Positions 31,913 through 61,913 of a stretch of DNA of 64,000 nt are shown one piece after another; positions within the stretch are counted from its first letter, which is position 1, and each line of letters starts with the position of its first letter. The DNA comes from Elusimicrobiota bacterium (GTDB taxonomy: Bacteria; Elusimicrobiota; Elusimicrobia; UBA1565; UBA9628), in NCBI GenBank assembly GCA_027319565.1, contig DAHVNA010000001.1, forward strand, positions 114,716-178,715. The letters are read 5' to 3'. The notes beneath the pieces are model-generated. The model was not told the DNA's origin, made no database searches, and worked only from the letters and a program-made list of their open reading frames with translations. A program made the translations under genes and the position numbers.

Positions 31913-33975
31913 CGACTTTTCGCCGATGGGGGCGGCTTTTCTTGCCTCTCGCTTTTATTTCCTGCGCGACAGTCAAAGTTCCCATGTCGGTAACGTTTCC
32001 GCCGGCCATCGATTTGTCTCCTTACCATCGCTTCGCTTTTGGCGACATGAACGGCAATCTCGGCCATCGTTTTCAAGACGCTTTGGAAAGTTATTTGTCG
32101 CGCTCCAAAAATTTTAATTTCATAAATAGAGACCGGCTTAATGTGTTGACTGCGGAATATGACCTGACTCAGGCGCAAAATTCAGCGGATGCTCAAATGA
32201 ACGCTATTGCGATGAAGGTTCATGGCGCGGCGTTTATTTCGGGAACCATTAATCAAAATTATTACCAGTTCATTCAAGAGTCGCCGGATACCTGTCAATG
32301 GAATAACCGCGCTCATCCCTGCCCGTTAAAAACACGGGTCGGGCGGATTCGCATCGGCGGGCATTTGGATGTGACAAGTGCCGTAAGTGGAAAATTGATT
32401 CACTCCCAAGCGATATCAAAAGTTTGTCAGGCTCAGAGCCAGGCCAAAAACGCTTCTCCGCCTCCCATCGATCGCTCGCAGTTGACGCAAAATTGCGTTA
32501 ATTCCGCGGCGCGGGATTTGGCGATGCTTTTTTTGCCCTCAAGGAAAATGTTTTATCCAAGTTTCATAAAAGTGGGGGATATCCCGGCGGTGGCCCGGGG
32601 AATTGGAGATGTGGAGGCCGGAGACATAGCCCAAGCGGCCAAGGATTTTAACGCGGCCCTTAAAGATCCCAAGGTCGGCTCTAGGGATTTTGATAAAAAG
32701 TCTTTGTCTGAAATCTATTGGGATCTCGCGTTGGCCCAAGAATATTCCTGGCAGTTTGGGCCGGCCTTGGATTCCCTCAAGAAATCATATGCGCTTAACC
32801 CGGTTTTAAAAACGCAAAAAGAAGAATCCCAGCTTCTTAATTTTGAATCCGCGCGAAGACGGCTTTTAGGCGTTACTCCCCTGATGCTGGCGGTCGAAGG
32901 TGGGGCTTTTCATCAAGTTCAAACTCTTCTTCAAAAAGGCGCGGACCCTAATTTGCAGGATGCCTCGGGAAATACGGCCTTAATGCGCGCCGTTCAGAAA
33001 CAGAACTTGGCGATGGTCCAAATTCTTCTTCGCCATGGGGCTTGGCCCACGATTAGAAATAATCAAGGACTGAGCGCTTTGGATATGTCTAAAAATCCAA
33101 AAATTTCCGATCTGTTGAGAGAAGATTTTTCAAAACCTTCGGTTTCCCATCCAGAAAAGCCCGCGCGGCCTTCAAAAATCGTAATTCATTCCGATGTGGA
33201 TAAAATTCCTTACCATCTTCCGGAAGACCCGTTTAAAATCGCACTGGTCGTCGGCATTGAACACTATGAAAACAATCTCCCATCGGCTGATTTTGCCGAC
33301 CACGACGCCGAAGTCATGCGCGAGCATTTAATGGCTTTGGGCTATGCTCCGCGCCATATCCATTGGCTCAAAGATGAAGAAGCGACTCGCGCGGCCTTGG
33401 TCAAAAATTTTGAGGGCTGGCTGCCTCAAGTCGTTTCCTCATCTTCTACCGTTTTCTTTTATTACTCCGGTCACGGGGCCGCCGATCCGCAGACGCATAA
33501 AACTTATTTGGTTCCAGCGGATGGAGATCCCAATTATCTTCAAGAAACGGCTTATCCTCTTTCCCGTCTTTACTCGACTCTTGGAAAATTATCCGCAAAA
33601 CGGGTGATTGTCGTTTTAGACTCTTGCTTTTCAGGCCGCGGCGCGAGGTCTTTGTCTCCCACGGGAATGCGGCCTTTGGTGACCGTCTCTCCATCCGCGC
33701 CTATTTCAAAAGGGAGGGTTGTTGCCATGACCGCTGCTTCCGGGACCCAGATCGCGGAAGTTCTTAATTCCGAGGGCCATGGCTTGTTTACTTATTATTT
33801 TTTGAAGGGCCTTAATGGCGCGGCCACAACGCCAGTGAAAGTCATTACCTTGCAATCTCTCTATCATTATTTAAGGCCCGAGGTCGAAGACGCCGCAGGC
33901 CTTAAAAACCGGACTCAGACGCCGGAGTTTTTGCCGCAAAGACTTCTGAATGCGGCGCCGATTGTCTTGCGATAA
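31909..33975 (+). CDS. Lipoprotein with a CsgG/LpoB-like N-terminal domain, ankyrin repeats and a C-terminal caspase-like (peptidase C14) domain.
   Basis: Lipoprotein-type signal (RLFLPLAFISCAT). CsgG-like segment HRFAFGDMNGNLGHRFQDALESYLSRSKNFNFINRDRLNVLTAEYDL. Ankyrin units TPLMLAVEGGAFHQVQTLLQKGADPNLQDASGNTALMRAVQKQNLAMVQILLRHGA. Caspase His/Cys dyad in FFYYSGHGAADP and VIVVLDSCFSGRGA. Confidence 0.7.
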   Translation: MTTFRRWGRLFLPLAFISCATVKVPMSVTFPPAIDLSPYHRFAFGDMNGNLGHRFQDALESYLSRSKNFNFINRDRLNVLTAEYDLTQAQNSADAQMNAIAMKVHGAAFISGTINQNYYQFIQESPDTCQWNNRAHPCPLKTRVGRIRIGGHLDVTSAVSGKLIHSQAISKVCQAQSQAKNASPPPIDRSQLTQNCVNSAARDLAMLFLPSRKMFYPSFIKVGDIPAVARGIGDVEAGDIAQAAKDFNAALKDPKVGSRDFDKKSLSEIYWDLALAQEYSWQFGPALDSLKKSYALNPVLKTQKEESQLLNFESARRRLLGVTPLMLAVEGGAFHQVQTLLQKGADPNLQDASGNTALMRAVQKQNLAMVQILLRHGAWPTIRNNQGLSALDMSKNPKISDLLREDFSKPSVSHPEKPARPSKIVIHSDVDKIPYHLPEDPFKIALVVGIEHYENNLPSADFADHDAEVMREHLMALGYAPRHIHWLKDEEATRAALVKNFEGWLPQVVSSSSTVFFYYSGHGAADPQTHKTYLVPADGDPNYLQETAYPLSRLYSTLGKLSAKRVIVVLDSCFSGRGARSLSPTGMRPLVTVSPSAPISKGRVVAMTAASGTQIAEVLNSEGHGLFTYYFLKGLNGAATTPVKVITLQSLYHYLRPEVEDAAGLKNRTQTPEFLPQRLLNAAPIVLR

Positions 33976-34069: not shown

Positions 34070-35122
34070 GTGGGATACTTAAAAGGACTCGCGAAACGGG
34101 CGGAAGAAAGCGGTAAGGCGTATTTAAGGTCTCAATTTTTTAGGTTTTTACCGGTTTTGCCTCCGCCCAAGACTCCGGTCGACGTAAAAGCTGTTTCCCG
34201 CATTTTAGCCGTTCGTTCCGACGCGCGCTTAGGAAATATACTTCTTTTAACTCCGGCTCTGCGCTTAATTAAAGAGGCTTTTCCATCCGCACAAACGGAT
34301 ATCTTGATGCCGCAAGCTTATGCCGCGGCCTTAAAATTTAACCCTTGCGTCTCCCGGGTTTTAAGTCCCAAAGAATGGCCGCTTCTGCGCTTTTTCGGTT
34401 ATGATCTCGCTTTTGATTTTTCCTCCTACCATGCTTTTTCTCTCTCGGGTGCGTTGTGGAGCGCTTGGTCCGGTGCGCGCTGGAGGTTGGGATATCAACG
34501 TGGGGAATCGGATAGATTCATTAATATGCCTGTTCTCTGCCCTCGGGAAAAATTTCATGAGACCGTTAATTTAGCGCGCCTGGTGCGCGAGGCGGCGGGA
34601 AGGCCTTTAAGGCCCGATTCGGATTTAAGGCTTGAGTGGCATTGGGGTCCCGGTGAAAAAGAAGAGGGAGAAAAATTCTGGCGAAATCAGGGGTTGGATC
34701 AAGAATCCGTGGCTCTGTTCATCGGAGCTCGGGATCAGAAGCGACTCCCGCTGGCCTGGTTTTTAGAAATAGCCTCTCTTTTGCGCGCCCAGGGGAGAAA
34801 AACCGCTCTTCTCGCGGGTCCTGCGGAAAGACGTTTGATTGAGAATGTGTCCTTGCCCGTAGAGACGGTTTTACTGCCGGAGATGCCTTTAAGAAAATTT
34901 GCCGCCGCTTTATCCAATGCGAGAGCGGTTTTAACGGCCGACACGGGGCCGATGCATCTTTGCGTTTCTCTTAATATTCCGACGGTCGAACTCTTTAGCC
35001 ACAGCGAGCCTTGGAGGTTTGGCTATTCTCATTGGCCTTCCCATCGGGTGATAGAGACCCCAGGCCGATGGGCGGAAGTGGGAGAGGTCTGGCCGGTTTT
35101 ATCAGGGCTTCTTAACCGTTGA
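34070..35122 (+). CDS. Family 9 glycosyltransferase (ADP-heptose:LPS heptosyltransferase-like).
   Basis: ILAVRSDARLGNILLLTPALRLIKEAFPSAQTDILMPQAYAAALKFNPCV is a GT9 N-domain. C-terminal TADTGPMHLCVSLNIPTVELF is a GT9 nucleotide-sugar-binding motif. Confidence 0.7.
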   Translation: MGYLKGLAKRAEESGKAYLRSQFFRFLPVLPPPKTPVDVKAVSRILAVRSDARLGNILLLTPALRLIKEAFPSAQTDILMPQAYAAALKFNPCVSRVLSPKEWPLLRFFGYDLAFDFSSYHAFSLSGALWSAWSGARWRLGYQRGESDRFINMPVLCPREKFHETVNLARLVREAAGRPLRPDSDLRLEWHWGPGEKEEGEKFWRNQGLDQESVALFIGARDQKRLPLAWFLEIASLLRAQGRKTALLAGPAERRLIENVSLPVETVLLPEMPLRKFAAALSNARAVLTADTGPMHLCVSLNIPTVELFSHSEPWRFGYSHWPSHRVIETPGRWAEVGEVWPVLSGLLNR

Positions 35123-39520: not shown

Positions 39521-42500
39521 TTGAAAGGAGGGGCTTTGGGCTTGCTTTGGTCGTTATTTTTGTGGGGGAATCAGCTTTGTTTTCCCCAGGCTGCGGCAAT
39601 CCCGCCGGAGATGACTCTCAACACCCAAGCTCAACAGCTTTATCTCTCCGCGGGAAATTTTTTTCAAACCCAAGATTACGCCCATGCCGCCGATCAATAC
39701 CAAGAATTCTTAAAACGCGATCGCGATCAACCCGATCGTCTTGAGGCCCAGATGATGCTGGCGGAAAGCCTTTACCGGCAAGGCATTGCGCAATTGTCTT
39801 TGTCTCCTAAGCGCGCGGCAAAGATTTTTAAGCAGGCGAAAAAGGCTTATAAGAAAGTGTCTCGGGACTCTCCAAGCGGGGACTATCTGGCGGAGAGCGC
39901 GCGGTTTCGAATCGGGGAAATGGCCTTTAACCTTGGCCAATATGACGAGGCCGTTTCGGATATGGAAAGTTTGGTTTCCGATTACCCTCTAGGCACGTTG
40001 AGAGGCGAAGCCCGGTTGCTTGAGGCCGAGGCCTTGATGTCTCAAAAACAGTTCTCAAAGGCGGAGAACTTGCTGGATGAGGCTTTAAAAGAACAACCCT
40101 CTTATGCCGATAATCCGAGACTCAAATTAGTGCGCGGGATCGCTCTTTTTGAAACGGGAAATCCTGCCGCTGCTCTGGCGTCTCTGAGCGGGCTTCAATC
40201 TCCGCTCGCGCTTTTATATTCCGCTCGAGCCAACATGAATCTGGAAAAGCCTTTAATCGCGGTTGAGAACCTTAAGACCCTGATCGCGGATTATCCTGAA
40301 GACCCGGAAGTTGAAATGAGCCGTTATCTGGTGGGGGAGGCTTTTTTCGAGGCCAGAGACTACACCTCGGCAGCCCAGGTCTTTAACCAGTTTCTGATGG
40401 ATTATCCGCGTAGCTCTTTGCGCGGGGCGGCGACTTATAAAATGGGCTTATGCAGTTATAACCTTAAAGATTATATGGCGGCGCGCGGAGACTTTGAGTC
40501 GGTTGAACAAATGAGTCCGCCTGGAGAATTCGCCGAGCCGAGCCTCTACATGATGGGCGAATCTTTTCTAAAGGAAGGAAACTATACCAAAGCCGGTTTT
40601 GATTATTCCGATTTATCCTCCGCTTATTCCAATCGCTTGGCCGGAACCGCTCAATTTAAGCTGGCTTGGACCCAATATAAGCGGCAGGAATATCCGGAGG
40701 CCCATGTCACGCTCAATTCGTTCATTGTCCGCTATTCATCGCATCCATTAGTTCCAGCGGCGGCGTATCTCAATGGAAATACTTTAGGAAGCGAGGGTAA
40801 ATATCGCCAGGCGGCTCACGCCTATCAACAATCCTTAGACTTGGCGGCTTCCAATCTCTATCCCTATCGGAGTTTAATTTTAAACCCGGCCTTGGCCATG
40901 CTTAGCCGCTCCTATTTGGAAGCCGGAGAATACGGCCATTTGATCTCCGGTTATCAATACGTCCTTAAGGAAAATGCCCCCACCCAGGATCCTTGGCGCG
41001 CGGCCGCTCTCCTTTATATAGCGGAGGGATATTACCGGCAGGGGCTTTATGATCAGTCTCTTTCGATTTACAAGGAAATCATCCATTCCTATCCTGCGAC
41101 TCCGGAATCCATTGTCGCAAAGGATGGAATCAGTTGGTGTCTTTTTAAACAAGGGCATTTTTCTCAATCTTATCAGAAGCGCGTTGAACTGGAGGCCTTG
41201 AAGAACGCGCCGGCGATTGCCCCGTCTAAGACCGTTGTCGTCAATGAAAATCCGGGCGCCGATTTGTTTTTAAACAACCAGTATGCCGAGGCGGTCACTC
41301 TTTTTAATCAGAAAAAATATGCCGACGCCTTGGACGCCTTTGAGCGGTTTGAAAAAGATTACGCCCAGGACCCGCGCGCGGCCGATGCCGCTTTGGAAGA
41401 GGGTTGGTGCTATTACCGCCTCAATTATTACGGTGACGCCGTTAAAACCTGGGAAAGGGTGGAAGCGAGTTATTCGTCTTCTGAAGCCGCCAAATCCGCG
41501 GCCTGGGCCACGGCCGACACTTATTTTAGAGCCGCTCAATACGACAAAGCCGTGGCGGCCTATCAACATATACTCCAAACCTATCCGGATGACGCCGCTT
41601 CTTCATATGCCCGGCTTCGCATCGCCCAAAGTTATTACAACGCGAAAAATATTCCCCAGGCCATCTCTGCGTTTGAGGATGTTTTGAATAATTCTCCTGG
41701 AGACAAGGAGGGTCAACAGGTTCTGGATTATTTAACGCAGATGCTTTATCAGCCCGAATCTAAAGACGCGGCCTTAAAGGCTCTTCAATCTTTGGCGAGC
41801 TCCCAATCTTCGAACTCTTTTGGAGCGAGAGCGGAACTGGGTTTGGGGCTTTATTTTTTCGAGACGGGAGATTATACCAGCGCGGTTCAAAACTTAGAGG
41901 AAGCGATCCCCAACCTTTCGCGGGACAAAGATATTCGCGACGCCCAGTATGATTTGGCCCAATCTTATTACGCCTTAAAGCGCTATGAGGATGCGGAAAG
42001 GGCTTATCAGCGCTTTACGGAAAACTATCCTGACGATTCGCGTCTGAGAGCGGCTTTGTTTCGCATGGGAACCTCGGCGTTCAATTTAAAGGATTTCGAA
42101 AGAGCGGCCGCGGCTTTCCATCAGTTGGCGGCGCAGTATCCAAAGTCTCATTACGCCGCCTTGGCCCTCTACAACTCTTCCTTGGCCTATCGAAAATTGG
42201 GCGATTGGGAATCGGCGGCCTTGGCCTTGAAAAATTATATCGCTCTTTATCCGCAGCAGGCTCAAAAATCAAGCGCGCCATCGGAACTGGCTTCCGTTTA
42301 CGAGGAACAACGAGACTATGGAAAAGCGATTAAGCAGCTGGAGTCCGAAAAGAGCTCTCTTAAAAGCGATGACCCTGTTTTCCTAGAGACCAGTCTTGAG
42401 ATCGCCAAGGATTACGCGGCGATGGGAGATGATGCCGATTCTCTGAAAGAATACCAAGCCATCGAGGCTAGCCCGCTTAAGAGTAATCCCTACCGTTTAA

Positions 42501-42727
42501 ACGCCTTGGCCGATTTGGGCCGCTTCTATGAAGATAAAAAAGAGTGGAGCCTTGCGGCAAAGACCTATGAGGAGTTGTCTTTGAGCACCAACGATCCCAG
42601 TTGGCGCGATCCCGCCAAAGCTCGCGCAGAAGCGGATCGCGAAAAAGTTTCCAAGACCGTTTCGGCTGATTCCAATCAGAATCAAGTTCAGAATTCTTCC
42701 GCGCCGGCGGGAGGAGGGGCGCAATGA
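39521..42727 (+). CDS. Very large TPR-repeat protein (CpoB/YbgF-like repeats), probably periplasmic.
   Basis: N-terminal hydrophobic signal-like segment. TPR-like repeats across 1068 aa (e.g. QAQMMLAESLYRQGI, AAYLNGNTLGSEGKYRQAAHAYQQSL, AQYDLAQSYYALKRYEDAERAYQRF). The start may lie at in-frame TTGs at 39536 or 39542, since the SD falls inside the annotated start. Confidence 0.75.
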   Translation: MKGGALGLLWSLFLWGNQLCFPQAAAIPPEMTLNTQAQQLYLSAGNFFQTQDYAHAADQYQEFLKRDRDQPDRLEAQMMLAESLYRQGIAQLSLSPKRAAKIFKQAKKAYKKVSRDSPSGDYLAESARFRIGEMAFNLGQYDEAVSDMESLVSDYPLGTLRGEARLLEAEALMSQKQFSKAENLLDEALKEQPSYADNPRLKLVRGIALFETGNPAAALASLSGLQSPLALLYSARANMNLEKPLIAVENLKTLIADYPEDPEVEMSRYLVGEAFFEARDYTSAAQVFNQFLMDYPRSSLRGAATYKMGLCSYNLKDYMAARGDFESVEQMSPPGEFAEPSLYMMGESFLKEGNYTKAGFDYSDLSSAYSNRLAGTAQFKLAWTQYKRQEYPEAHVTLNSFIVRYSSHPLVPAAAYLNGNTLGSEGKYRQAAHAYQQSLDLAASNLYPYRSLILNPALAMLSRSYLEAGEYGHLISGYQYVLKENAPTQDPWRAAALLYIAEGYYRQGLYDQSLSIYKEIIHSYPATPESIVAKDGISWCLFKQGHFSQSYQKRVELEALKNAPAIAPSKTVVVNENPGADLFLNNQYAEAVTLFNQKKYADALDAFERFEKDYAQDPRAADAALEEGWCYYRLNYYGDAVKTWERVEASYSSSEAAKSAAWATADTYFRAAQYDKAVAAYQHILQTYPDDAASSYARLRIAQSYYNAKNIPQAISAFEDVLNNSPGDKEGQQVLDYLTQMLYQPESKDAALKALQSLASSQSSNSFGARAELGLGLYFFETGDYTSAVQNLEEAIPNLSRDKDIRDAQYDLAQSYYALKRYEDAERAYQRFTENYPDDSRLRAALFRMGTSAFNLKDFERAAAAFHQLAAQYPKSHYAALALYNSSLAYRKLGDWESAALALKNYIALYPQQAQKSSAPSELASVYEEQRDYGKAIKQLESEKSSLKSDDPVFLETSLEIAKDYAAMGDDADSLKEYQAIEASPLKSNPYRLNALADLGRFYEDKKEWSLAAKTYEELSLSTNDPSWRDPAKARAEADREKVSKTVSADSNQNQVQNSSAPAGGGAQ

Positions 42728-42781
42728 TGAATGGACGGAATTTTATTTCTAGTGGAGTGGTTCATAAATCCATTTACAATC

Positions 42782-42855
42782 CGTCACCCCGGCAGGTCTT
42801 AAGCCGGGGTCCAGCCTCTTTGTGGGTTTGGATTCCGGCAACAGCCGGAATGACG
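42782..42855 (-). repeat. REP/MITE-like double-hairpin element, copy 2, in inverse orientation to copy 1. It lies in the 5' leader / N-terminal extension of the FlgD-Ig gene.
   Basis: The reverse complement reads CGTCATTCCGGC-TGTT-GCCGGAATCCAAACCCACAAAGAGGCTGG-ACCCCGGC-TTAAGACCT-GCCGGGGTGACG, the same architecture as copy 1 at 17452-17526. Confidence 0.7.
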
Positions 42856-45800
42856 AAAATGCAAAATGTAAGCAAGAATTGGAGACTCTACGCTAGGGGA
42901 AAATGGCTTGCCATTTTCTTCTTCTTGATCGCCTTTTTATGGCCAAGGAATCTTCATGCCAAATCATCTCCATTAGAGCCCCCCAGCCTGATTTTTTCGC
43001 CCGCTGGAAACGGATCTCGAAAAACTCTTTCTTTTGTCGTTAATCTGCCGGAGACCGCCGAAGTCTCTAGCTGGCGTTTTGAGATTCGAGAGAAGGGAAA
43101 CAAAGACCTTCCCGGCGCCCTTGTCAAAGCATTTTCCGGTGATGGACGCCCGCCTCAAAAGATTGTCTGGGATGGAAAAGACACCCAAAACCGGGTGGTC
43201 GAGGATGGAACTTATTATTATTCGTTGAGCCTTCAGACCCCGGCTGGAAATCAAGCCGCGATTCGCCTTTCTCCGGTGATTGTCGACCGCGTTCCTCCCA
43301 CTATTTCGGCCAAGGTCCATCCCAGAATTTTTTCTCCCAACGGTCTTAAGCCGGAGACCGTTTTTACTTTGAAAGCTTCCGATCAGTACGGAATTTATGA
43401 ATGGCTGCTTGAAATTAAAGGTTCCGATGGGGTGCCGGTCAAGTCTTGGATGGGAAAAGGGCGTCCGCCCGCGGCCGTGCGTTGGGATGGGAGAGGAGAT
43501 TTTAATGAAGACGTGCCGAACGGGACCTATACCTTTCAGCTCACGGTTGAGAACCTGGCTTCAAATCGCGCGGTCACGCCGCCCCAGACGGTGACGGTTA
43601 AAAGGCAAGGCGTGGTTTCAACCGTGGGAGTGACTCCGGACGTTTTTTCCCCGCATAAAGAGAAACCGATCGCGAGTTTTGATATTACCGGCGGCGATCC
43701 TTCCTCGGTTGAGCGTTGGGAGCTCAAAATTATCAACCAAGCCGGCAGGCCCGTCTTTTCTTTCAAAGGCAATGGGGCTCCACCCGCGCGTCTTGACTGG
43801 AATGGGGATATTTCTAAGGATAAGACCGCGCCTGACGGGGCTTATCAAGTTATCTTATATGAGACCGACAATGCCGGGAACACCGCCGCTTCCGCTCCGG
43901 AACCCCTCTATGTCGATACAAAGCCGCCTCTTTTGGAAGCGCGCCTGGAGCCGGATTTGTTGAGTCCGGGAAAACAGCGCGAAAATTCCCAAGGGATTTT
44001 TAAATTGCGCGCTGAGAGCCGATATCCGTTTAAATGGGCCCTTAAAATTTATACCGATGTCGGAGAACCGGTCAGAACTTGGAGCGGGAAAATGGGGTCA
44101 AGAGTCCCGAACCAAATTTTGTGGCACGGCAATAACGACTCCGGGCAGATTGTCACCGACGGGACCTATTCTTATTCCCTTTGGGCTTCTGATATCGCCG
44201 GAAATGAAGGGGAAACTCCGCGGCAAAAATTCGTGGTGAACACGACTCCCCCGGCTCTGTCTGTTTCAGCGGATCATGCCCTTTTTTCTCCCAATGGCGA
44301 CCCCACTCTGAGCCACGTCGTTTTTAGTTTGAGCGCCCAGGATGCCAGTCCCTTCGCGAGCTGGGCTCTTTTGATTAACGATTCAAGCGGCAATCTTGTT
44401 CGCGAATTCACCGGATCTCCGCTCAATATTCCGGAGAGCGTCTCATGGAACGGGAAAAGCAAAGACCGCGAACCGCTTCCGGACGGGACCTACTCCTATG
44501 CGCTCGAGGCGAAAGATATCGCGGGAAATTCCGCCAAGACTAGTCCCCAAAATATCGTTATTGGAGCGACCAAGCCCATTCCTCGGGTGTCTTCTTCTCT
44601 GGACGCTATCTCGCCCAATGCCGATGGATTTAAAGACACGACCGATTTCCATTTGAGCGTCAAATCCTTCAATCCGGTTGAAAAATGGTTTCTTAGGATT
44701 TTTGATGAAGACAAGGTCGCGCGCCGGACCTTTGAAGGGCAGGGAGACGTTCCCGGAACCATCCAATGGGGCGGCGAGGGAGACGATCAAAAAACGCTTC
44801 CGGACGGGAGATATTCTTATCAGCTGGAAGTGGTCGACGCCGCCGGAAACACCAGCAAGACCCGCCTTAAATCTATTTTGATCAACACAACGCCGCCCAC
44901 AATTAAAATTACCGCCGACCCTGCTCTTTTTTCGCCGAAACCGACGGCGCCTCATTTTAGCTCTTCGACCATGTTTGTCCTAGGCTATCAAGATGTCAGC
45001 CCGGTCATGAGATGGAAAGTGATCATTCAGGACCCGATGAAAAATAATGTTCGCGTTTTTTCCGGAAATTCTTCTTTTCCGCGGTCAATTTCCTGGTATG
45101 GGCGTTCCAGCTCCAGAAAGATTTTACCGGACGGGCCCTACACCTATACTCTTTTCGCGGAAGATGATGTTGGCAATAAGTCGACCACCTCCGAGCAGAT
45201 TTTGCGCTTGGACGGCTCTTCTCCCCAGGTGAGTTTGAGAGCGGACCCCACGCTTTTTTCGCCCGGGACGGGCTCTCAGAAAAACGAGACGACTCTATTG
45301 TTGGGATATAAGGCCAAGGCCGACATCTCTAAATGGAAATTGTCCATTGACTTAAAAAAGGGAGAAGTCGCGCGCGTTTTCTCGGGCCTTGGGCGTCCGC
45401 CGCAAAATATCCCATGGGACGGGAAAAACGCCTACGGGCGCATTCTTCCCGATGGGACTTACGACGCGTTTTTGAAAGTCATTGACGAAGTCGGCAACGA
45501 GGGGCTTAGCCCCGCCGCTAAAATCACGATCGACACCTCAAAACCAGTCGCCACTGTCGTCGCCCAAACCGAGCAGTTGGAAGACCTAAGCGTTCCTCTG
45601 ACCGTTACGAAAGACGCGGACAAGGATATCGTTATTTCCTTGGCCAGCGAGGTCCTTTTTGATAGCGGCAAGTCGACTTTAAAAGATGCGGCCGACAATA
45701 CCCTTTTAAGAGCCGCCTATCTTATTAAGCGTTATCCCCATCGCGCCGTTTTAATTAATGGGTATACCGACAATGTGCCAATCCATGACGCGTCGTTTAA

Positions 45801-46023
45801 AAACAACCAACAGCTTTCAAAAGCGCGGGCCGAGGCCGTAATGAAGTTCTTGGCCTTTAAGGCGAATATTCCCGCCTCTCGGATGAAAGCCCAGGGCTTT
45901 GGGGATAAAAATCCTATCGCCTCTAACGACGATCCCGAGGGCCGGCAAAAGAACCGCCGCGTGGAAATTGTTTTGACCAGCAATACCCATCGATCTCATG
46001 CGACTAAGGAGGAGAATCAATGA
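42850..46023 (+). CDS. Giant envelope protein with a signal peptide, about 8 tandem FlgD-Ig-like domains and a C-terminal OmpA_C peptidoglycan-binding domain (Pal-like anchor).
   Basis: Likely start MTKMQNVSKNWRLYARGKWLAIFFFLIAFLWPRNLHA (signal peptide). The ORF-track start at 42724 reads through the REP element. Repeats carry FSPNG..., W(D/N)G(K/R)..., PDGTY.Y and DxAGN motifs (e.g. IVWDGKDTQNRVVEDGTYYYSL; ILWHGNNDSGQIVTDGTYSYSLWASDIAGN). OmpA_C: LFDSGKSTLKDAADNTLLRAAYLIKRYPHRAVLINGYTDNVP...SKARAEAVMKFL...RRVEIVL. Confidence 0.75.
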   Translation: MTKMQNVSKNWRLYARGKWLAIFFFLIAFLWPRNLHAKSSPLEPPSLIFSPAGNGSRKTLSFVVNLPETAEVSSWRFEIREKGNKDLPGALVKAFSGDGRPPQKIVWDGKDTQNRVVEDGTYYYSLSLQTPAGNQAAIRLSPVIVDRVPPTISAKVHPRIFSPNGLKPETVFTLKASDQYGIYEWLLEIKGSDGVPVKSWMGKGRPPAAVRWDGRGDFNEDVPNGTYTFQLTVENLASNRAVTPPQTVTVKRQGVVSTVGVTPDVFSPHKEKPIASFDITGGDPSSVERWELKIINQAGRPVFSFKGNGAPPARLDWNGDISKDKTAPDGAYQVILYETDNAGNTAASAPEPLYVDTKPPLLEARLEPDLLSPGKQRENSQGIFKLRAESRYPFKWALKIYTDVGEPVRTWSGKMGSRVPNQILWHGNNDSGQIVTDGTYSYSLWASDIAGNEGETPRQKFVVNTTPPALSVSADHALFSPNGDPTLSHVVFSLSAQDASPFASWALLINDSSGNLVREFTGSPLNIPESVSWNGKSKDREPLPDGTYSYALEAKDIAGNSAKTSPQNIVIGATKPIPRVSSSLDAISPNADGFKDTTDFHLSVKSFNPVEKWFLRIFDEDKVARRTFEGQGDVPGTIQWGGEGDDQKTLPDGRYSYQLEVVDAAGNTSKTRLKSILINTTPPTIKITADPALFSPKPTAPHFSSSTMFVLGYQDVSPVMRWKVIIQDPMKNNVRVFSGNSSFPRSISWYGRSSSRKILPDGPYTYTLFAEDDVGNKSTTSEQILRLDGSSPQVSLRADPTLFSPGTGSQKNETTLLLGYKAKADISKWKLSIDLKKGEVARVFSGLGRPPQNIPWDGKNAYGRILPDGTYDAFLKVIDEVGNEGLSPAAKITIDTSKPVATVVAQTEQLEDLSVPLTVTKDADKDIVISLASEVLFDSGKSTLKDAADNTLLRAAYLIKRYPHRAVLINGYTDNVPIHDASFKNNQQLSKARAEAVMKFLAFKANIPASRMKAQGFGDKNPIASNDDPEGRQKNRRVEIVLTSNTHRSHATKEENQ

Positions 46024-49196: not shown

Positions 49197-49573
49197 AAAA
49201 AACAGATGAAGCGGTCTTGATCGTAGATGATGACGATGGCATGCGGGAGTTGGCCGAAGTGATGTGTAAGCAGATGAAGCTTAAAACTTTCTCCGCTTCG
49301 GACACCGTCGCCGCCCGGCGCTATCTTGAAGAAAATATCCCGCGCTTGATTCTTCTCGACATCATGATGCCGGACGGAAACGGCATCGAGTTTTGTCAGT
49401 GGATGCGTTCGCAAGAGGAGTTTAAAAATGTTTCAATTATCGTAACAAGCGCTTTAAAAGAAGAAGAAACGATTCAAGACGCTTTTAAAGTCGGCGCCAA
49501 TGACTTTTTGTCAAAGCCCTTCGAGGTGGTGATTTTTATGGAGAAACTGGGACGTTGGATTAAAGATAAATGA
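49193..49573 (+). CDS. Single-domain CheY-like response regulator receiver.
   Basis: VLIVDDDDGMRELAEV...LILLDIMMPDGNGIEFCQWMR...DFLSKPF. Confidence 0.8.
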   Translation: MKKTDEAVLIVDDDDGMRELAEVMCKQMKLKTFSASDTVAARRYLEENIPRLILLDIMMPDGNGIEFCQWMRSQEEFKNVSIIVTSALKEEETIQDAFKVGANDFLSKPFEVVIFMEKLGRWIKDK

Positions 49574-50544
49574 GAGCGGCTATTTTAGCTTGTTTGTTTT
49601 TTGGAGGCGTTCTCTTTGCCGCGGCGGATTCTCAAAACGGCGGGAATGCCGCGAGCGGGCAAGGAGTGTTGCCGGAGGTCCTCATCGAAGCCGAGCATAA
49701 CAAGCCTTTGCCGTTGTCCAAACCACCCTTGAGTTTTGATGTCAAGGAAGACCAGCCAATCGAAAAGATTCTCAAACAAACGGACCGTTCTTTGATGAAT
49801 CGTCTTCCTTCTCAAATACTAAAATCAAACGTCTTTAAGCCAGAGATTTCAGTCAGCTCTCGGGTTATTATTCCGTCCCAGATTTGGATTGTCCGGCCTT
49901 GGGCGGGAGATTTCGCGCATGTTTTTCACCCGCAAAATATCCTATCAAGCATTCACGCCTTTGAAGATAATCGAAACGAGCGCAAGAAGGCAGTTTGGGA
50001 AATGGACGTGGTCGATGGAGAGGGAAAATCAATCCAGCATTTTTCCGGTTCCGGAGTCGTGCCCAAGCGGATACCCTTTGACGGGAAAGACAAGGATGGA
50101 AAATGGATCGAAGTCGGAGAGACCTACATGGGAGTTCTCAAAAACACCGATTCTCAAGGCAGGATTCATACCGCCTACGGCCGTCCTTTTAAAATAGCGG
50201 GGCTCAGCCTCAAGAATTCTTCCTCTTTTTCTATCGACTTGGACGCGGGAGTTCTTTTTTCCACCTCTTCTGCCGTTCTTGAGTTTTCTCCCTTCGGGCG
50301 GGAACTGATTGTAGAAGCCGCCCAGTTGCTGCAAAGATATTATCCCGGCTTTTCGGTTGCGGCATCTCTTTCGAGCAAACGCTTAAATTCCCAAGAACTT
50401 AAAAAAGCCGTTTCCCTGTGCGCCGAGGAAATCGCAAATAGACTCATTATTTCCTCGTCTAATATCCGAAAGAGTTGGAACCGTCAAGATGCGGGAGGAG
50501 AGGGAGTTCTCGCCATTTCAGTCCAATCCCAGGCTCGGCCGTAA
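49570..50544 (+). CDS. Secreted hypothetical protein with one FlgD-Ig-like domain.
   Basis: Signal peptide MRAAILACLFFGGVLFAAA. VWEMDVVDGEGKSIQHFSGSGVVPKRIPFDGKDKDGKWIEVGETYMGVLKNTDSQGR matches the W..G...P..i.fDGkd..G..v..G.Y pattern. Confidence 0.4.
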   Translation: MRAAILACLFFGGVLFAAADSQNGGNAASGQGVLPEVLIEAEHNKPLPLSKPPLSFDVKEDQPIEKILKQTDRSLMNRLPSQILKSNVFKPEISVSSRVIIPSQIWIVRPWAGDFAHVFHPQNILSSIHAFEDNRNERKKAVWEMDVVDGEGKSIQHFSGSGVVPKRIPFDGKDKDGKWIEVGETYMGVLKNTDSQGRIHTAYGRPFKIAGLSLKNSSSFSIDLDAGVLFSTSSAVLEFSPFGRELIVEAAQLLQRYYPGFSVAASLSSKRLNSQELKKAVSLCAEEIANRLIISSSNIRKSWNRQDAGGEGVLAISVQSQARP

Positions 50545-54167: not shown

Positions 54168-55232
54168 ATGATGAAGGAAAAACTCTTCAAATTCCGAAAA
54201 TTCCGATGGGGAATTGGGTTTCTCGCGTTATGGATGGGGTTTCCCGTTTGGGCTCTTGAGTCTTCCGCGCGCTTTGAAGAGCCGGTTCCAATTAATTTAC
54301 ATTCTTTTTCCAATGCCGTCCAACCCAATGATGTTTTGCCCGATCTGGGAAATTCTCCGAAAGAGATTTCTTTCCCAAGCGAAATTTTTCATAGAAAAGA
54401 GCGCCTTTTAAGTCCTCAGGTTCCTTTAGCTAGACCCCATGATCTAGCAGACAACGATCCTGCTCGGGGCTTTGTGCCATTTGAGAGAGTTGTCGAAAAT
54501 TCCCCAAAATCCGTATTTCAGACGAAAACCGCTTCTCGCCTCAATCAGGAGTCGTTTAAAAGTCCTGTTAGCGGCGGGGTTCTTTTTGACGGCGCTCAAG
54601 AAAAAGAGGGGCCGTGGAAATACGATTTGGAGGGAGCGTTGTGGTTTTCCGGTCAACAGGCGCAACTGATAGGTTCCGGTTCTTATGGGCGCGTTTTTGC
54701 GCATCCCGCTAATCAAGACTGGGTCGTTAAAGTGATTCACGGCAGCAGGATTTACGGGGCGACCGCGTTTTATGAACATCCGGAATTTTCCAATCTTGAG
54801 AAATTGTCTCAAGCCCATCTTTCTCCGCGCCCGATAGATACGGGTCTCATAAATGGCATTCCCTATATTATTTCAGAGCGGGTGCATGGCGCGACCTTAG
54901 GAGACATCATTGGCGAGAAAAAATTTGGCATTAGGGAGTTAAAATTATTGCGGCAGATGTTTAACTCTCTTTTAAAGAGCCGGTTTTCCATCGTCGATCT
55001 AACCCCCAGCAATGTCATGTTGGGGCATACGGCGTCTAATCCAGAACCCCAAGCCTATATTATTGACGCGGGGCTTTTAACTTCGATTAGCGTTTTTGCT
55101 AATCCTTTTATTGATATCCAAGATTTGGTGAAAGATTGCAACGATTTGCTACGCCGATCAGGGAGCGTTCGAAAAATCGAGTTTGCGCGCCGGGAGATTG
55201 GTCATAAAGCCGCGCTTTTTTTCTCGCGTTAA
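54168..55232 (+). CDS. Signal-peptide-bearing protein with a C-terminal protein-kinase-like (PKL) fold.
   Basis: Signal/TM FRWGIGFLALWMGFPVWALESS. Kinase-like elements: Gly loop LIGSGSYGRVF, beta3 Lys WVVKVIH, hinge ISERVHGATLGD, catalytic-loop-like IVDLTPSNVML and DFG-like YIIDAGL. Confidence 0.4.
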   Translation: MMKEKLFKFRKFRWGIGFLALWMGFPVWALESSARFEEPVPINLHSFSNAVQPNDVLPDLGNSPKEISFPSEIFHRKERLLSPQVPLARPHDLADNDPARGFVPFERVVENSPKSVFQTKTASRLNQESFKSPVSGGVLFDGAQEKEGPWKYDLEGALWFSGQQAQLIGSGSYGRVFAHPANQDWVVKVIHGSRIYGATAFYEHPEFSNLEKLSQAHLSPRPIDTGLINGIPYIISERVHGATLGDIIGEKKFGIRELKLLRQMFNSLLKSRFSIVDLTPSNVMLGHTASNPEPQAYIIDAGLLTSISVFANPFIDIQDLVKDCNDLLRRSGSVRKIEFARREIGHKAALFFSR

Positions 55233-55236
55233 TTTA

Positions 55237-57450
55237 ATGAAGATATCTGCTCAAATTCTGTGGAGCCTTTTTCTTTTGATTTCTGCTCCCTTTTCTTATG
55301 CCGCTTCCGGCTGGGTTGAGGCGGATCCTGCGGGAGGCTTTTCAAAATATAACCCGGCGACCGTCGACCGGATTGAGTTTGGGAATCAATTTCAGAATCA
55401 GGGAATGGATCAATGGTGCGATCGATTCCCTCTCATCGTGCCCCTCAGTCAAGACTTTGTCAACGGTTTGGGGCCGGGAAGTTTGTTGGTCGGGGGAACT
55501 TTTTCGGGAACTAGACAATTTCTCCGCTATCCCGATGGCAGTCTTGCTCTCAACGATCAATTGGAAATTAAATTTCAAAGCGGATATGCGATGACCGCCG
55601 TCAAGAGCGCGGCAGGCATTTCTCAGAGGGCTTTAGGGGTTTACGCGGGGGTTTCCGTCGATGGGCAGTCGATTGTCACCCGTCCGCTTCACACCGCTGA
55701 CTCTTGCAGCCAGGTCAAACGCCTTCTCAACGTGCTTGACTTTAAAACCGTTCTCCCGCTCAATGCCAAGAGAATTTCAAAAATGGAAGTGGGGGAATTG
55801 TGGGAAATTCCGCTGGTCTATCAGATTTCTTTTGAGCCTTTGGACGCGGCCCAGGTCCTGGAAACTCCGGGGTCTTTTACGCCTTTTTCCGCTTATTTCG
55901 CGATAGGCTTGTCTAAAACCGCGGACCCCACCGTGACTCTTTTTAGAAAATCTTCGCACGATTTGCGCCTCAAAATCCATTTCGATCAATTTAAGACCGT
56001 CAGCGCTTCCGGCGGAGCGGTCGTAGGGCCGATTCCAGCCACCGATATTGGAACTCCGGGAATTGAGTCGCTTTTATCGAACATGCTTCCGAATCTTATC
56101 TCGAATCCCGCGCTTAAACTTTTAACGCGAGAGGTGGATGATTATCTCGCGGCCCAGATTGCGGTTTTAGTCTCTCAAGAGCGCGGCGGGCAAATTTTAC
56201 TCGAATACCGCTTGGATCCCGCCAATCAAAAACAGATGGAAGAACTCGCCAAGCTTTTGAAAGGCGATTTGAGCGTTCTTTCAGCGATGAAAAATCTGTT
56301 GGTCGACTGGAGGGGACGAGAAAACAAAGATATCGAAAAAACCCTCAACGCTTTAAGGCAAAGGCATTTGGAACATTTGCGCGTTTCCGAATCCTTGTCC
56401 GGTTTTGATCATTATCGACAGAGTCTTAAAACGCTCAATTTTTCGGTTCCGTTTCTTTTTAATTACAGCGGCTCGGTCGCGCGGAACACCGATCATTATG
56501 TGATCGCAGCGCCCCGAGGTCTTGAGTTCTATTCCTATAAGTCTCAAAAACAATCGAATTGGGGATTTTTAAAGCCCCCGATTGTGGGCTCTTCGTTGAG
56601 GCATAATCAGAGTCAAAGCGTGCAATCCCTTGTTTTTCTCAATGCGCGCCACGCTTCTAAAAATAAGGATGAGCAATTAATAGTTTATAACCGGGAAACC
56701 GGCATTTTGCGCTTGGGAGATATCCAGCAGGAGTTGTCTCGAATTGATTCTTTGATTGCCTCTATCGGGTCTCTTCAAAATTTTCCGCCTGAGGCGGAAA
56801 TTCCCAAAAAACTCAAGGATCTTGTTTCCGGTTCCGAACATAAAGGCTATGCGGAGTTAAGCGTGATTTTGACTCCAAAAGCGATTCATCAAATTATTTC
56901 TTCTTCCTCGGAATCTGTTCTCCGTGCCTTTGAGCTTTCGCTTTCCGGCGGCAACCGCGCGGTCTTTGACTATGCCCTCAAATATTCAAGATTATCGGCC
57001 GATGGCAGCCTGCATTTTAAGCGTTCTTTTGTCCGACACTTGGACGAACTGAATTTGCCGGATCCAACCCGAAAAAGGCCGGAAATGGTTTTATCCAAGG
57101 CCGGGGTTTTATTTCACGAAGTCGAGCTTCTAATTTCTGATTTAAAGAGAGCGAAAAACATTCCTTCTCCGGAACAGCAATCAAAAGAGATTCTTAAGAT
57201 ATTGGACGGCAGTTCCCATTGGTTTGAGTCTTACTCTGGATATGGCCGGGTGGTTGAAGTTCTGTTGCGTCTTGCGCCGCGAGACGGGGTGGCCGCCGAT
57301 TTGTTTTTCCATGTAGACAAAAAGAAAACCGATTCCTCAAACCCGAGCAAGCGCTATTTATTTAGCCCAGATATTCTCAGCCAGGCTTCTCTGCGCGCGA
57401 TTAGCGCCGTTGAGCGTTCCTTTATGCCGCCGACTTCGCTCAACGATTGA
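55237..57450 (+). CDS. Large secreted hypothetical protein (738 aa).
   Basis: Signal peptide MKISAQILWSLFLLISAPFSYA|AS at an in-frame ATG with good context. The ORF-track start at 55183 overlaps the upstream gene. No recognisable domain. Confidence 0.4.
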   Translation: MKISAQILWSLFLLISAPFSYAASGWVEADPAGGFSKYNPATVDRIEFGNQFQNQGMDQWCDRFPLIVPLSQDFVNGLGPGSLLVGGTFSGTRQFLRYPDGSLALNDQLEIKFQSGYAMTAVKSAAGISQRALGVYAGVSVDGQSIVTRPLHTADSCSQVKRLLNVLDFKTVLPLNAKRISKMEVGELWEIPLVYQISFEPLDAAQVLETPGSFTPFSAYFAIGLSKTADPTVTLFRKSSHDLRLKIHFDQFKTVSASGGAVVGPIPATDIGTPGIESLLSNMLPNLISNPALKLLTREVDDYLAAQIAVLVSQERGGQILLEYRLDPANQKQMEELAKLLKGDLSVLSAMKNLLVDWRGRENKDIEKTLNALRQRHLEHLRVSESLSGFDHYRQSLKTLNFSVPFLFNYSGSVARNTDHYVIAAPRGLEFYSYKSQKQSNWGFLKPPIVGSSLRHNQSQSVQSLVFLNARHASKNKDEQLIVYNRETGILRLGDIQQELSRIDSLIASIGSLQNFPPEAEIPKKLKDLVSGSEHKGYAELSVILTPKAIHQIISSSSESVLRAFELSLSGGNRAVFDYALKYSRLSADGSLHFKRSFVRHLDELNLPDPTRKRPEMVLSKAGVLFHEVELLISDLKRAKNIPSPEQQSKEILKILDGSSHWFESYSGYGRVVEVLLRLAPRDGVAADLFFHVDKKKTDSSNPSKRYLFSPDILSQASLRAISAVERSFMPPTSLND

Positions 57451-58185
57451 TTAGAACCCGACGCCAATGTTAAGCTCGTAGCCGGAAATGCCATGGAATA
57501 TCATGTAGGCTCCTCTGAGATCCACAAAGGGGAAAGGGGTGATGTCGATGCCGGCCGCCAAACGCGAACCCGTGGCTGTTGCCGCGAGCCCATCAAGGCC
57601 AGCGATTTGGGCCGTGTTGATTGTCGCTCTAGTGTCGTCAAAGCCCGCGCCGATAAAGGGCTGAACGATCGGCAGTCTCCAGATCGCGCTGAGGTCTCCT
57701 GATAAATGAGTCATCGAAAAGGCGCTGTCGTTGATCATGTCTCCCATCGCGGAAACCTCGACCGTCGGTAAAAAGAAAAGGAGGCGGGATGGAGTGAAGA
57801 GTCCATAGCGAAGGCCTCCACCTAAAACCGTCGCGCCATCGTAGCTAAATCCATGAGCTACGACGTCTAAATGAAAGGGAAGCCCTAATGTTCCCTGAAC
57901 CATTGGCAAGCCGAACGCCCCGGCGCCGCTGTTTTTTAGGACGATGTCATTTGAATTGGGGGCGGTTTGCGCTACTCCAACAAGTCCCAGGGAAAAACCG
58001 GGGAAACCATCCGGCGCTGTCGGGTCAAATTCCGCGCCTCCAAGAACTCCTCCGATATCGAGCGCAAAAGGCTTGAGCGCCTGGGAATTGATGAGTGACG
58101 AAAATTGATTAAAGGGTCCCGCCCAGGACCATAGCGGCAAAGATAACGGCATTAACGCCAACAAAAACAGAAATATTTTTTTCAT
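57451..58185 (-). CDS. Probable outer-membrane beta-barrel protein.
   Basis: Signal peptide MKKIFLFLLALMPLSLPLWSWA. Alternating hydrophobic beta-strand pattern. Gly-rich. C-terminal ...LNIGVGF ends in an aromatic residue. Confidence 0.4.
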   Translation of the reverse strand: MKKIFLFLLALMPLSLPLWSWAGPFNQFSSLINSQALKPFALDIGGVLGGAEFDPTAPDGFPGFSLGLVGVAQTAPNSNDIVLKNSGAGAFGLPMVQGTLGLPFHLDVVAHGFSYDGATVLGGGLRYGLFTPSRLLFFLPTVEVSAMGDMINDSAFSMTHLSGDLSAIWRLPIVQPFIGAGFDDTRATINTAQIAGLDGLAATATGSRLAAGIDITPFPFVDLRGAYMIFHGISGYELNIGVGF

Positions 58186-60840: not shown

Positions 60841-61434
60841 ATGAATAAAATCAACAGCCGTATTGCCGAGGAATTGACGGAAAGCGGGCGGGTCATCTCT
60901 CAGTCCGCTCAAATGGCCCCTTTGCTTGAGAAAGTAGCCGAAGAATTGGTGTCTTGTTATCGTCGCGGCAACAAGATATTGACTTTTGGAAATGGCGGAT
61001 CGGCTTGCGATGCCCAAAATTTCGCCGACGAACTCGTTGGCCGTTTCGAGCGCAATCGCCCACCCCTTCCGGCATTGGCTTTGACCACTAACACTTCGGA
61101 TCTCACCTCAATATCCAACGATTTCGGTTATGAGGTTGTCTTTGCAAGGCAACTTGAGGCCCATGCCAAGCCCGGAGATATCGCGGTGGCGATATCGACC
61201 TCGGGAAACTCCAAAAATGTCCTTTTGGCCGCAGAAGCGGCAAAAAAATTAGGGCTTTTAGTCATCGGTCTTTCTGGAGAAAGCGGGGGGAAACTCAAAA
61301 ATATCGCTGACTTCTGCGTTTGCGTCCCGTCTAAGACCGTCGCGCGCATCCAAGAGGCGCATATCGCCATCATTCAAATCTGGTGCGGGATTATTGAGGA
61401 CTCTCTTTTCCCGAATGCGCCAAAAGCCCATTGA
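60841..61434 (+). CDS. gmhA: Phosphoheptose isomerase (SIS domain).
   Basis: ILTFGNGGSACDAQNFADELVGRF...DIAVAISTSGNSKNVLLAAEAAKKLGLLVIGLSGESGG. Confidence 0.8.
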   Translation: MNKINSRIAEELTESGRVISQSAQMAPLLEKVAEELVSCYRRGNKILTFGNGGSACDAQNFADELVGRFERNRPPLPALALTTNTSDLTSISNDFGYEVVFARQLEAHAKPGDIAVAISTSGNSKNVLLAAEAAKKLGLLVIGLSGESGGKLKNIADFCVCVPSKTVARIQEAHIAIIQIWCGIIEDSLFPNAPKAH

Positions 61435-61913
61435 GACCGGCGATGGGAGAGATCGTTTCTTTAAAGACAGCCGCGCTGATCCGCCAAAGCCTGAAAAAAA
61501 AACATAAGACGGTTGTTTTTACCAATGGAGTCTTCGATATTTTGCACGCCGGTCATGTTCAGGTTCTGGAGCGGGCTAAAAAAATGGGAGATGTTTTAAT
61601 TCTAGGCCTTAACCGCGATGAGTCGGTTCGCCTATTGGGAAAAGGCCCGGGCCGCCCGCTCAACCGCTTTAAAGACCGTGCCCGAGTTTTAGCGGCATTG
61701 TCGGCTGTTGACTACGTCGTTGGGTTTAAGGAAAAAACCCCTGAGAAGACGATTCGGGTTTTAAGGCCCGATATCCTGGTTAAGGGCGCCGACTATTCAA
61801 AAAACCAAATCGCGGGCGCCGCCTTTGCCGGGAAAGTCGTCCGTATCGCGCTTAAAAAAGGCTATTCAACGACAGCCCTGGTCAAAAAAATTCAGGGGTT
61901 ATCCGCCGCCTGA
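61431..61913 (+). CDS. Standalone D-beta-D-heptose-1-phosphate adenylyltransferase (RfaE/HldE domain II, cytidylyltransferase fold).
   Basis: VVFTNGVFDILHAGHVQVLERAKKMGDVLILGLNRDESV...DYVVGF. HxGH motif. About 160 aa with no fused kinase domain. Confidence 0.75.
   Translation: MRPAMGEIVSLKTAALIRQSLKKKHKTVVFTNGVFDILHAGHVQVLERAKKMGDVLILGLNRDESVRLLGKGPGRPLNRFKDRARVLAALSAVDYVVGFKEKTPEKTIRVLRPDILVKGADYSKNQIAGAAFAGKVVRIALKKGYSTTALVKKIQGLSAA

Follow-up and report, generated by a model that had tools for sequence, protein, structure and literature searches.

To our knowledge, apart from a few exceptions, bacterial enzymes with the protein kinase fold stay in the cytoplasm or are injected into hosts, and ATP-driven chemistry is usually taken to be absent from the periplasm. 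Kinases of the PknB type consist of an N-terminal cytoplasmic kinase domain, a transmembrane helix and an external sensor, and the YrbL family (PF10707), with YrbL of E. coli (b3207, 'protein kinase-like domain-containing protein YrbL'), is typified by small cytoplasmic single-domain proteins under PhoP control. The open reading frame ORF1 described here shares core kinase motifs with both groups and differs from both in its domain layout. It lies at 54168-55232 (plus strand, stop codon included) of a stretch of 64,000 nucleotides from an Elusimicrobiota bacterium (assembly GCA_027319565.1, contig DAHVNA010000001.1, positions 114,716 to 178,715 of the forward strand), the whole of which is called the window below. 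According to the open reading frame call and profile searches, ORF1 encodes a 354-amino-acid protein in which a predicted signal peptide, a linker and a minimal kinase-like domain follow each other. The explanation that we favour, with a probability of roughly 0.55, is that ORF1 is a minimal protein-kinase-fold enzyme which is exported via the Sec pathway and acts on an extracytoplasmic target.

If this is correct, the Sec signal would direct ORF1 out of the cytoplasm, and the kinase domain, tethered by a flexible linker of ~110 residues, would reside in the periplasm, at the cell surface or outside the cell. The active enzyme would most likely transfer the γ-phosphate of ATP to an extracytoplasmic target, or would use a nucleotide in another way. 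ORF1 would be co-transcribed with the downstream gene ORF2, and the products of ORF1, ORF2 and the next gene, ORF3, may act together in the envelope in a narrow clade of Elusimicrobia.

The kinase-like domain and its family

Profile searches delimited a minimal protein-kinase-like domain at residues 141-354 (~210 amino acids; 54588-55229, plus strand). The motifs on which the preliminary description of this DNA had based its kinase-fold assignment are all present in the 354-amino-acid product. GSGSYGRV (residues 169-176; 54672-54695, plus strand) aligns with the glycine-rich loop of the kinases matched in PDB, and Lys188 within W-V-V-K (54729-54731, plus strand), which corresponds to the 'VAIK' lysine of strand β3, aligns with the lysine of AVKVI in CDPK. 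The catalytic loop DLTPSN (residues 277-282; 54996-55013, plus strand), with Asp277 as the catalytic base and Asn282 as a metal ligand, aligns with DLKPEN of solved kinases, and IIDAG (residues 298-302; 55059-55073, plus strand), the DFG equivalent containing Asp300, aligns with IIDFG. G169xG171xxG174, K188, E206, D277, N282 and D300 can thus be matched motif by motif to solved kinases.

The catalytic residues singled out in the preliminary description were also found to be retained in homologues. Among 116 family domains, Gly171 is present in 114, Lys188 in 104 (with Arg in a further six), Glu206 in 84 (with Asp in a further 25), Asp277 in 111, Asn282 in 112 and Asp300 in 115. The preservation of Lys188, Asp277, Asn282 and Asp300 in 90-99% of the domains argues for active enzymes, and by the same token ORF1 itself is likely to be active. 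Only 54 residues follow Asp300 of the DxG motif in ORF1, the family median being 80; judged by its sequence, ORF1 is a minimal kinase which lacks an activation segment and a full C-lobe. An F-D-G-like motif was observed at residues 140-142 (54585-54593), 25-30 residues before the glycine-rich loop. It is invariant in the ORF1 orthologues, occurs in ~47% of the wider family and may represent an N-terminal extension of the kinase domain.

The best Pfam match of ORF1 was YrbL-PhoP_reg (PF10707; E 1.8e-6), with a score of 28.2 bits that lies below the gathering cutoff of 31.5 bits. Weaker matches were obtained to Pkinase (E 0.14) and ABC1 (E 0.25), and all three families belong to the protein-kinase-like clan. 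PF10707 was matched by 27 of 45 relatives at E<=0.01, and one relative (P0024) exceeded the cutoff with 32.9 bits; APH, Pkinase, ABC1, Kdo, RIO1 and OspG were matched by one or two relatives each. When the profile of the 45 relatives was compared with PDB, 441 solved kinase sequences were recovered at E<=1, the best being 7wj6 (5e-8). The same family profile (A3) aligned with E. coli YrbL over 120 columns with an hhalign probability of 94.5% (E 7.9e-8), whereas the alignment of the narrow clade alone (A1) reached only 25%. Scored with the family hidden Markov model (HMM), E. coli YrbL obtained 21.7 bits, and ordinary metagenomic Hanks kinases selected by pattern obtained 40-80 bits. As far as sequence comparison can tell, the resemblance of ORF1 to kinases is far beyond chance, which upholds the kinase-fold assignment, and the ORF1 group is best described as a clade of its own within the kinase superfamily; YrbL is the named family closest to it.

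When 1.84 billion representative sequences were searched exhaustively with the HMM, 164 proteins were returned at E<=1e-3, of which 69 reached E<=1e-10, and the family was put at approximately 100-160 clusters. The matches span the core from the glycine-rich loop to DxG, and the weakest of them are ordinary Hanks kinases. A third, word-indexed homologue search with a diverse alignment produced nothing new. A scan of metagenomes for family loci found 36, but the true members were only two (L018 and L019), the others being ordinary Hanks kinases picked up by a pattern of the DLKPxNIMLG type; neighbourhood statistics are therefore limited to ~10 loci. Some family members carry C-terminal membrane domains, namely an Rce1-like CPBP protease (P0073 and P0095), a rhomboid protease (P0089) or LPG_synthase_TM (P0014, locus L012). 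In addition, giant proteins of 2900-7300 amino acids with no signal peptide (P0057, P0067, P0080, P0107 and P0114) embed the family domain beside Pkinase, FKBP, Metallophos, HD and PRPP-synthetase N-domain modules. The family is rare and known so far only from metagenomes and uncultivated bacteria, and no description of the ORF1 clade was found in the literature searched. Close homologues of ORF1 are scarcer still, with only six among 5.8 billion clustered proteins, and the gene was found at four genome loci of closely related Elusimicrobia.

The predicted export signal and the linker

The first 30 residues of ORF1 (54168-54257, plus strand) were predicted from the sequence and by a heuristic to form a Sec signal peptide with an n-region rich in Lys and Arg, an h-region of 15 residues and a V-W-A/L cleavage site. 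The N-terminus reads MMKEKLFKFRKFRW-GIGFLALWMGFPVWA, followed after the predicted cleavage site by LESS. The n-region has a net charge of +5, with six Lys or Arg residues preceding the hydrophobic core; Gly and Pro occur close to the end of this core, and positions -3 to -1 are taken by V-W-A. Both a twin-arginine motif and a lipobox are absent from this N-terminus. Proteins exported by Sec and processed by signal peptidase I have a positively charged n-region, 7-15 residues in the h-region and small side chains at -3 and -1, and lack a later transmembrane segment. ORF1 shows this pattern in its sequence, and our crude heuristic classed its N-terminus as signal-peptide-like.

The signal peptide or N-terminal anchor proposed in the preliminary description gains support from comparison, as its features recur in about half of the wider family and in orthologues that are only 33-40% identical in this segment. 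In the orthologues with 50% overall identity, the WA[LIV]ESS junction and the other signal features are kept despite the differing sequence. The positive charges in front of the hydrophobic segment predict an N-in/C-out orientation. This reverses the layout of PknB and speaks against an ordinary membrane-anchored kinase of that type, an alternative which the preliminary description had kept in view. The first 30 residues would accordingly act as a Sec signal peptide that is cleaved off or, failing that, as an anchor with N-in/C-out orientation. It is from this putative export signal that an extracytoplasmic position of the kinase domain is predicted, and the domain probably works outside the cytoplasm.

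Residues 31-140 (54258-54587, plus strand), recognised by low identity and composition, form a variable linker of ~110 amino acids rich in Ser and Pro. No secondary structure was predicted for it, albeit in an AlphaFold model that was otherwise unusable (pLDDT, predicted local distance difference test, 33). Compared with the orthologues of 50% identity, the kinase domain is 65% identical and the linker 27-29%.

In most full-length members of the wider family a textbook signal peptide precedes an Ala/Pro-rich linker, and about half of the family begins with a signal peptide. According to the same heuristic, 78 of 125 family proteins were signal-peptide-like and 64 of the 125 also lacked a later transmembrane segment, compared with 19 and 11, respectively, of 42 control open reading frames from the window. 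The enrichment over the control reading frames is real, and the tool that revealed it is crude.

ORF2, ORF3 and other genes of the window

The TAA stop codon of ORF1 (55230-55232) is followed by TTTA and by the ATG start codon of ORF2 at 55237, which leaves a gap of four nucleotides; the triplet at 55234 is a Leu codon and not the start of ORF2. The preliminary description had reported an abutting gene for a secreted protein of 738 amino acids with no recognisable domain. The signal-like N-terminus and the lack of a domain were borne out, while the gene (55237-57450, plus strand) does not abut ORF1 and encodes 737 amino acids. In an orthologue 50% identical to ORF1, the two genes overlap by four nucleotides. 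A scan for promoters and terminators, which gave nothing notable overall, showed no terminator-like site between ORF1 and ORF2. The short gap here, the overlap in the orthologue and the absence of a terminator-like site suggest that ORF1 and ORF2 are co-transcribed. ORF3 (57451-58185, minus strand; 244 amino acids) is convergent with ORF2, and their stop codons are directly adjacent (57448-57453) with no intergenic bases, so that there is no space for a terminator between them. The GC content showed no anomaly across the locus, and an Rfam scan of the window gave no matches.

The order ORF1-ORF2-ORF3 is the same in every locus long enough to show it. One of the four loci (L005) is too short to include ORF2, ORF3 or the desaturase and AdoHcyase genes that lie downstream in the other three (L001, L006 and L007), and the whole block up to AdoHcyase is syntenic. 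In the more distant genomes, identity to the window is 48-50% for ORF1, 75.5% for ORF2, 80% for ORF3, 80% for the desaturase and 95% for AdoHcyase. ORF1 thus evolves faster than any other gene of the block, and most of this is due to its divergent N-terminal third.

ORF2 encodes a putatively exported protein with a predicted signal peptide at approximately residues 1-22 and an unassigned fold. No match to it was found in Pfam, NCBIfam, PADLOC or the PDB sequences, and its structural model (pLDDT 54) gave no convincing fold match. ORF2 of the window and its three closest homologues contain exactly two cysteines each, and the pair Cys61/Cys157 is retained without exception in the eight homologues, even at 24% identity. 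The invariant pair fits a disulfide formed in an oxidising compartment, and such a bond is probable in ORF2. The last ~12 residues, with the pattern R-x-F-x-P-[PT]-...-L-x-D (57370-57447), are likewise kept in homologues down to 24% identity and could constitute a sorting or recognition tail.

The product of ORF3 resembles an outer-membrane protein in its signal peptide, its high content of Gly and Phe, amphipathic β-patterns and a C-terminal ...GVGF; an outer-membrane location may be proposed from these features. ORF3 had no family or PDB match, and its N-terminus, like that of ORF2, was signal-peptide-like according to the heuristic. A gene for 249 amino acids beside the ORF2 homologue P0010 is not a homologue of ORF3. 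Three genes that neighbour distant relatives, encoding 217 amino acids in L009, 1001 in L016 and 818 in L013, were compared with ORF2 as possible homologues and none of them is one.

Several other genes of the window deserve mention. Lipopolysaccharide (LPS) inner-core heptose genes are found at 60841-61913 and 34070-35122 (both plus strand), coding for a GmhA-like SIS protein, a cytidylyltransferase-like protein resembling HldE domain II and a GT9 heptosyltransferase, which fits a diderm bacterium with LPS. Tandem genes at 39521-46023 (plus strand) encode large envelope proteins, one of 1068 amino acids that is TPR/YfiO-like and one of 1099 amino acids with FlgD_ig, CHU_C and Big repeats and a C-terminal OmpA domain. 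A protein of 324 amino acids encoded at 49570-50544 (plus strand) has a signal-like N-terminus, no family match and marginal similarity to the OmpA-like adhesin Lsa66. Directly downstream of two histidine kinase genes (28887-31912), a gene at 31909-33975 (plus strand) encodes a protein of 688 amino acids with ankyrin repeats and a caspase (Peptidase_C14) domain.

Site of action, rival explanations and related systems

Several observations weigh against the favoured explanation. The main internal evidence against a generally periplasmic location comes from the fusion proteins: in those with CPBP or LPG_synthase_TM domains, the Lys/Arg-rich flank of the first membrane helix is the one towards the kinase domain, which hints at a cytoplasmic kinase domain in these proteins, although the pattern is ambiguous and the calling of transmembrane segments crude. 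The signal heuristic is lax and was positive for 26-45% of the control reading frames. The AlphaFold2 model of ORF1, built from an alignment of seven sequences, had a pLDDT of 33 and was unusable, so that it is the profiles that carry the fold assignment. ORF1 also diverges faster (48-50% identity) than its neighbours ORF2 (75%), ORF3 (80%) and the desaturase gene (80%). The periplasm is generally regarded as poor in ATP, which is awkward for an ATP-dependent enzyme. In enterobacteria, ATP was found to transit the periplasm, since a periplasmic apyrase abolishes its release by the bacteria (PMC6335424). Nucleotide supply is nevertheless the weak point of an extracytoplasmic kinase.

The pairing of ORF1 with ORF2 gave no specific support to the substrate-enzyme or effector module that the preliminary description had suggested as a possibility. 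The pair is confined to four genomes of close relatives in which the flanking housekeeping genes are syntenic too, and each family occurs elsewhere without the other. The ORF2 homologues P0010-P0013 (41%, 37%, 26% and 24% identity) have no kinase-like neighbour and are instead surrounded by arginine-biosynthesis genes, regulators that bind cyclic nucleotides (cNMP) or unrelated genes. Conversely, none of seven distant homologues of the kinase has a relative of ORF2 beside it; their neighbours encode an SLT transglycosylase and sugar epimerases, an OEP protein, a Wzy_C-TPR protein, two-component regulators, an ATP-grasp protein and a CHAT-TPR giant. The functional link between ORF1 and ORF2 is therefore circumstantial, and ORF2 is a candidate partner or substrate of ORF1. 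A wider generalisation of the favoured explanation, which we offer tentatively and consider rather doubtful, would be an undescribed clade of catalytically intact, Sec-exported minimal kinases that phosphorylate periplasmic or surface targets with leaked or exported ATP and that in some lineages are wired to intramembrane proteases (CPBP, rhomboid) or lipid-handling membrane domains.

A secreted effector would differ from the enzyme proposed above only in its site of action, as Sec export would be followed by release, through type II secretion or vesicles for instance, and by activity in or on a host, prey or competitor cell. ATP is plentiful in such a cell, which would solve the problem of supply, and the minimal effector kinases NleH, OspG and HopBF1 do act in the host cell. 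The minimal architecture of ORF1, with 54 residues after the Asp of DxG against the median of 80, points in the same direction, as do weak profile matches (NleH1 with E 1.2e-3 and OspG_kinase in one relative), the fast evolution of ORF1 that is often seen in effectors, and the family domains embedded in giants of 3000-7000 amino acids which resemble effector arrays. We consider an effector unlikely all the same: the window shows ordinary envelope genes, neither a secretion system nor host association has been shown for this organism, and NleH and OspG, which are secreted by the type III route, carry no Sec signal. It is similarly unlikely that the kinase fold serves another role in ORF1, be it that of a Bud32/RIO-like ATPase or switch, a kinase that modifies small molecules, glycans or lipids of the envelope, an AMPylating enzyme or a pseudokinase scaffold. 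In DLTPSN, Thr stands where Ser/Thr protein kinases have Lys, as it does in the catalytic loops of Bud32 (DLTTSN) and RIO; an activation segment and an APE motif are missing, the C-lobe is short, and no biochemical activity of YrbL was reported in the literature that we found. Envelope-type neighbours of the relatives (SLT and sugar epimerases; Wzy_C-TPR; OEP beside the LPG_synthase_TM fusion) and the LPS heptose genes of the window also suit such a role. These neighbourhoods are heterogeneous, however, with no recurrent partner, and ORF1 has no Kdo/WaaP or APH match. That Lys, Asp, Asn and Asp are all conserved speaks against a dead pseudokinase.

In the remaining explanation the hydrophobic stretch would not act as an export signal, and ORF1 would be an ordinary intracellular atypical kinase, cytoplasmic or facing the cytoplasm, like YrbL of E. 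coli. Kinases need ATP, about half of the family has no signal, and the way charges are distributed around the membrane domains of the fusion proteins hints at a kinase on the inside. E. coli YrbL (210 amino acids), which starts eight residues before its glycine-rich loop, has no N-terminal hydrophobic stretch. In ORF1, by contrast, six Lys or Arg residues are followed by a 15-residue core too short for a stable membrane helix and then by V-W-A/LESS. Moreover, orthologues retain these features despite sequence drift, C-out is the orientation expected from the positive-inside rule, and both flanking genes are also predicted to encode exported proteins, which together make a cytoplasmic ORF1 quite improbable. 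A role in a defence system was considered as well and rejected, since only marginal matches to the PD-T4-6 and MAD6 kinases (E 1e-3 to 8e-5), far below the cutoffs, were obtained.

A conserved clade of kinases in which Sec signals are combined with intact active sites would raise the questions of whether phosphorylation takes place in the bacterial envelope and of the source of the nucleotide. It would also provide a first functional handle on the YrbL-like branch of the kinase superfamily, which is uncharacterised. The wider generalisation offered above would mean genuine extracytoplasmic phosphorylation in diderm bacteria. The practical value is modest at present, and interest would be high only if the extracytoplasmic activity were shown.

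ORF1 can be compared with several known systems. The eukaryotic secretory-pathway kinases act in the ATP-supplied lumen of the Golgi. Fam20C, VLK and CotH embody the same concept, that of a kinase-fold enzyme which bears a signal peptide and modifies exported substrates, but no sequence relationship of ORF1 to them was detected in any search. The Kdo kinases and WaaP (PF06293) belong to the same superfamily and are small, and some relatives of ORF1 have envelope-related neighbours. The 'Kdo-kinase-like' nature suggested in the preliminary description gained no specific support, since ORF1 had no PF06293 match at E<=1 and only one of the 45 relatives had one (5e-5). KdkA and WaaP act on the cytoplasmic face of the membrane. 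NleH and OspG resemble ORF1 in their very small kinase domains without the substrate-binding helices of the C-lobe, and the similarity (to NleH1, 4lrj, and in one relative to OspG_kinase) is marginal. All the core motifs of the Hanks-type Ser/Thr kinases (PF00069, PknB) align with ORF1, which differs from them in its order of signal, linker and kinase domain, in S-I-V-D instead of H-R-D, in the absence of an activation segment and APE and in its short C-lobe; its score with Pkinase was 12 bits, below the cutoff of 31.7 bits.

YrbL remains the closest of the named proteins. It shares with ORF1 the motifs G-x-G-x-x-x-x-[VC]-[FY]-x-H-P ... [IV]-K-[IV], the L-x-P-x-N loop and the Asp of DxG within a domain of ~200 residues. 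YrbL of E. coli K-12 (L015, 4453-5085) has Ser (MSLKPQN) where ORF1 has the catalytic Asp277, and it possesses neither the signal peptide nor the linker of 110 amino acids, so that ORF1 does not belong to the small cytoplasmic single-domain type. Judging from these comparisons, ORF1 would be an export-signal-bearing variant of the YrbL-like proteins with the protein kinase fold.

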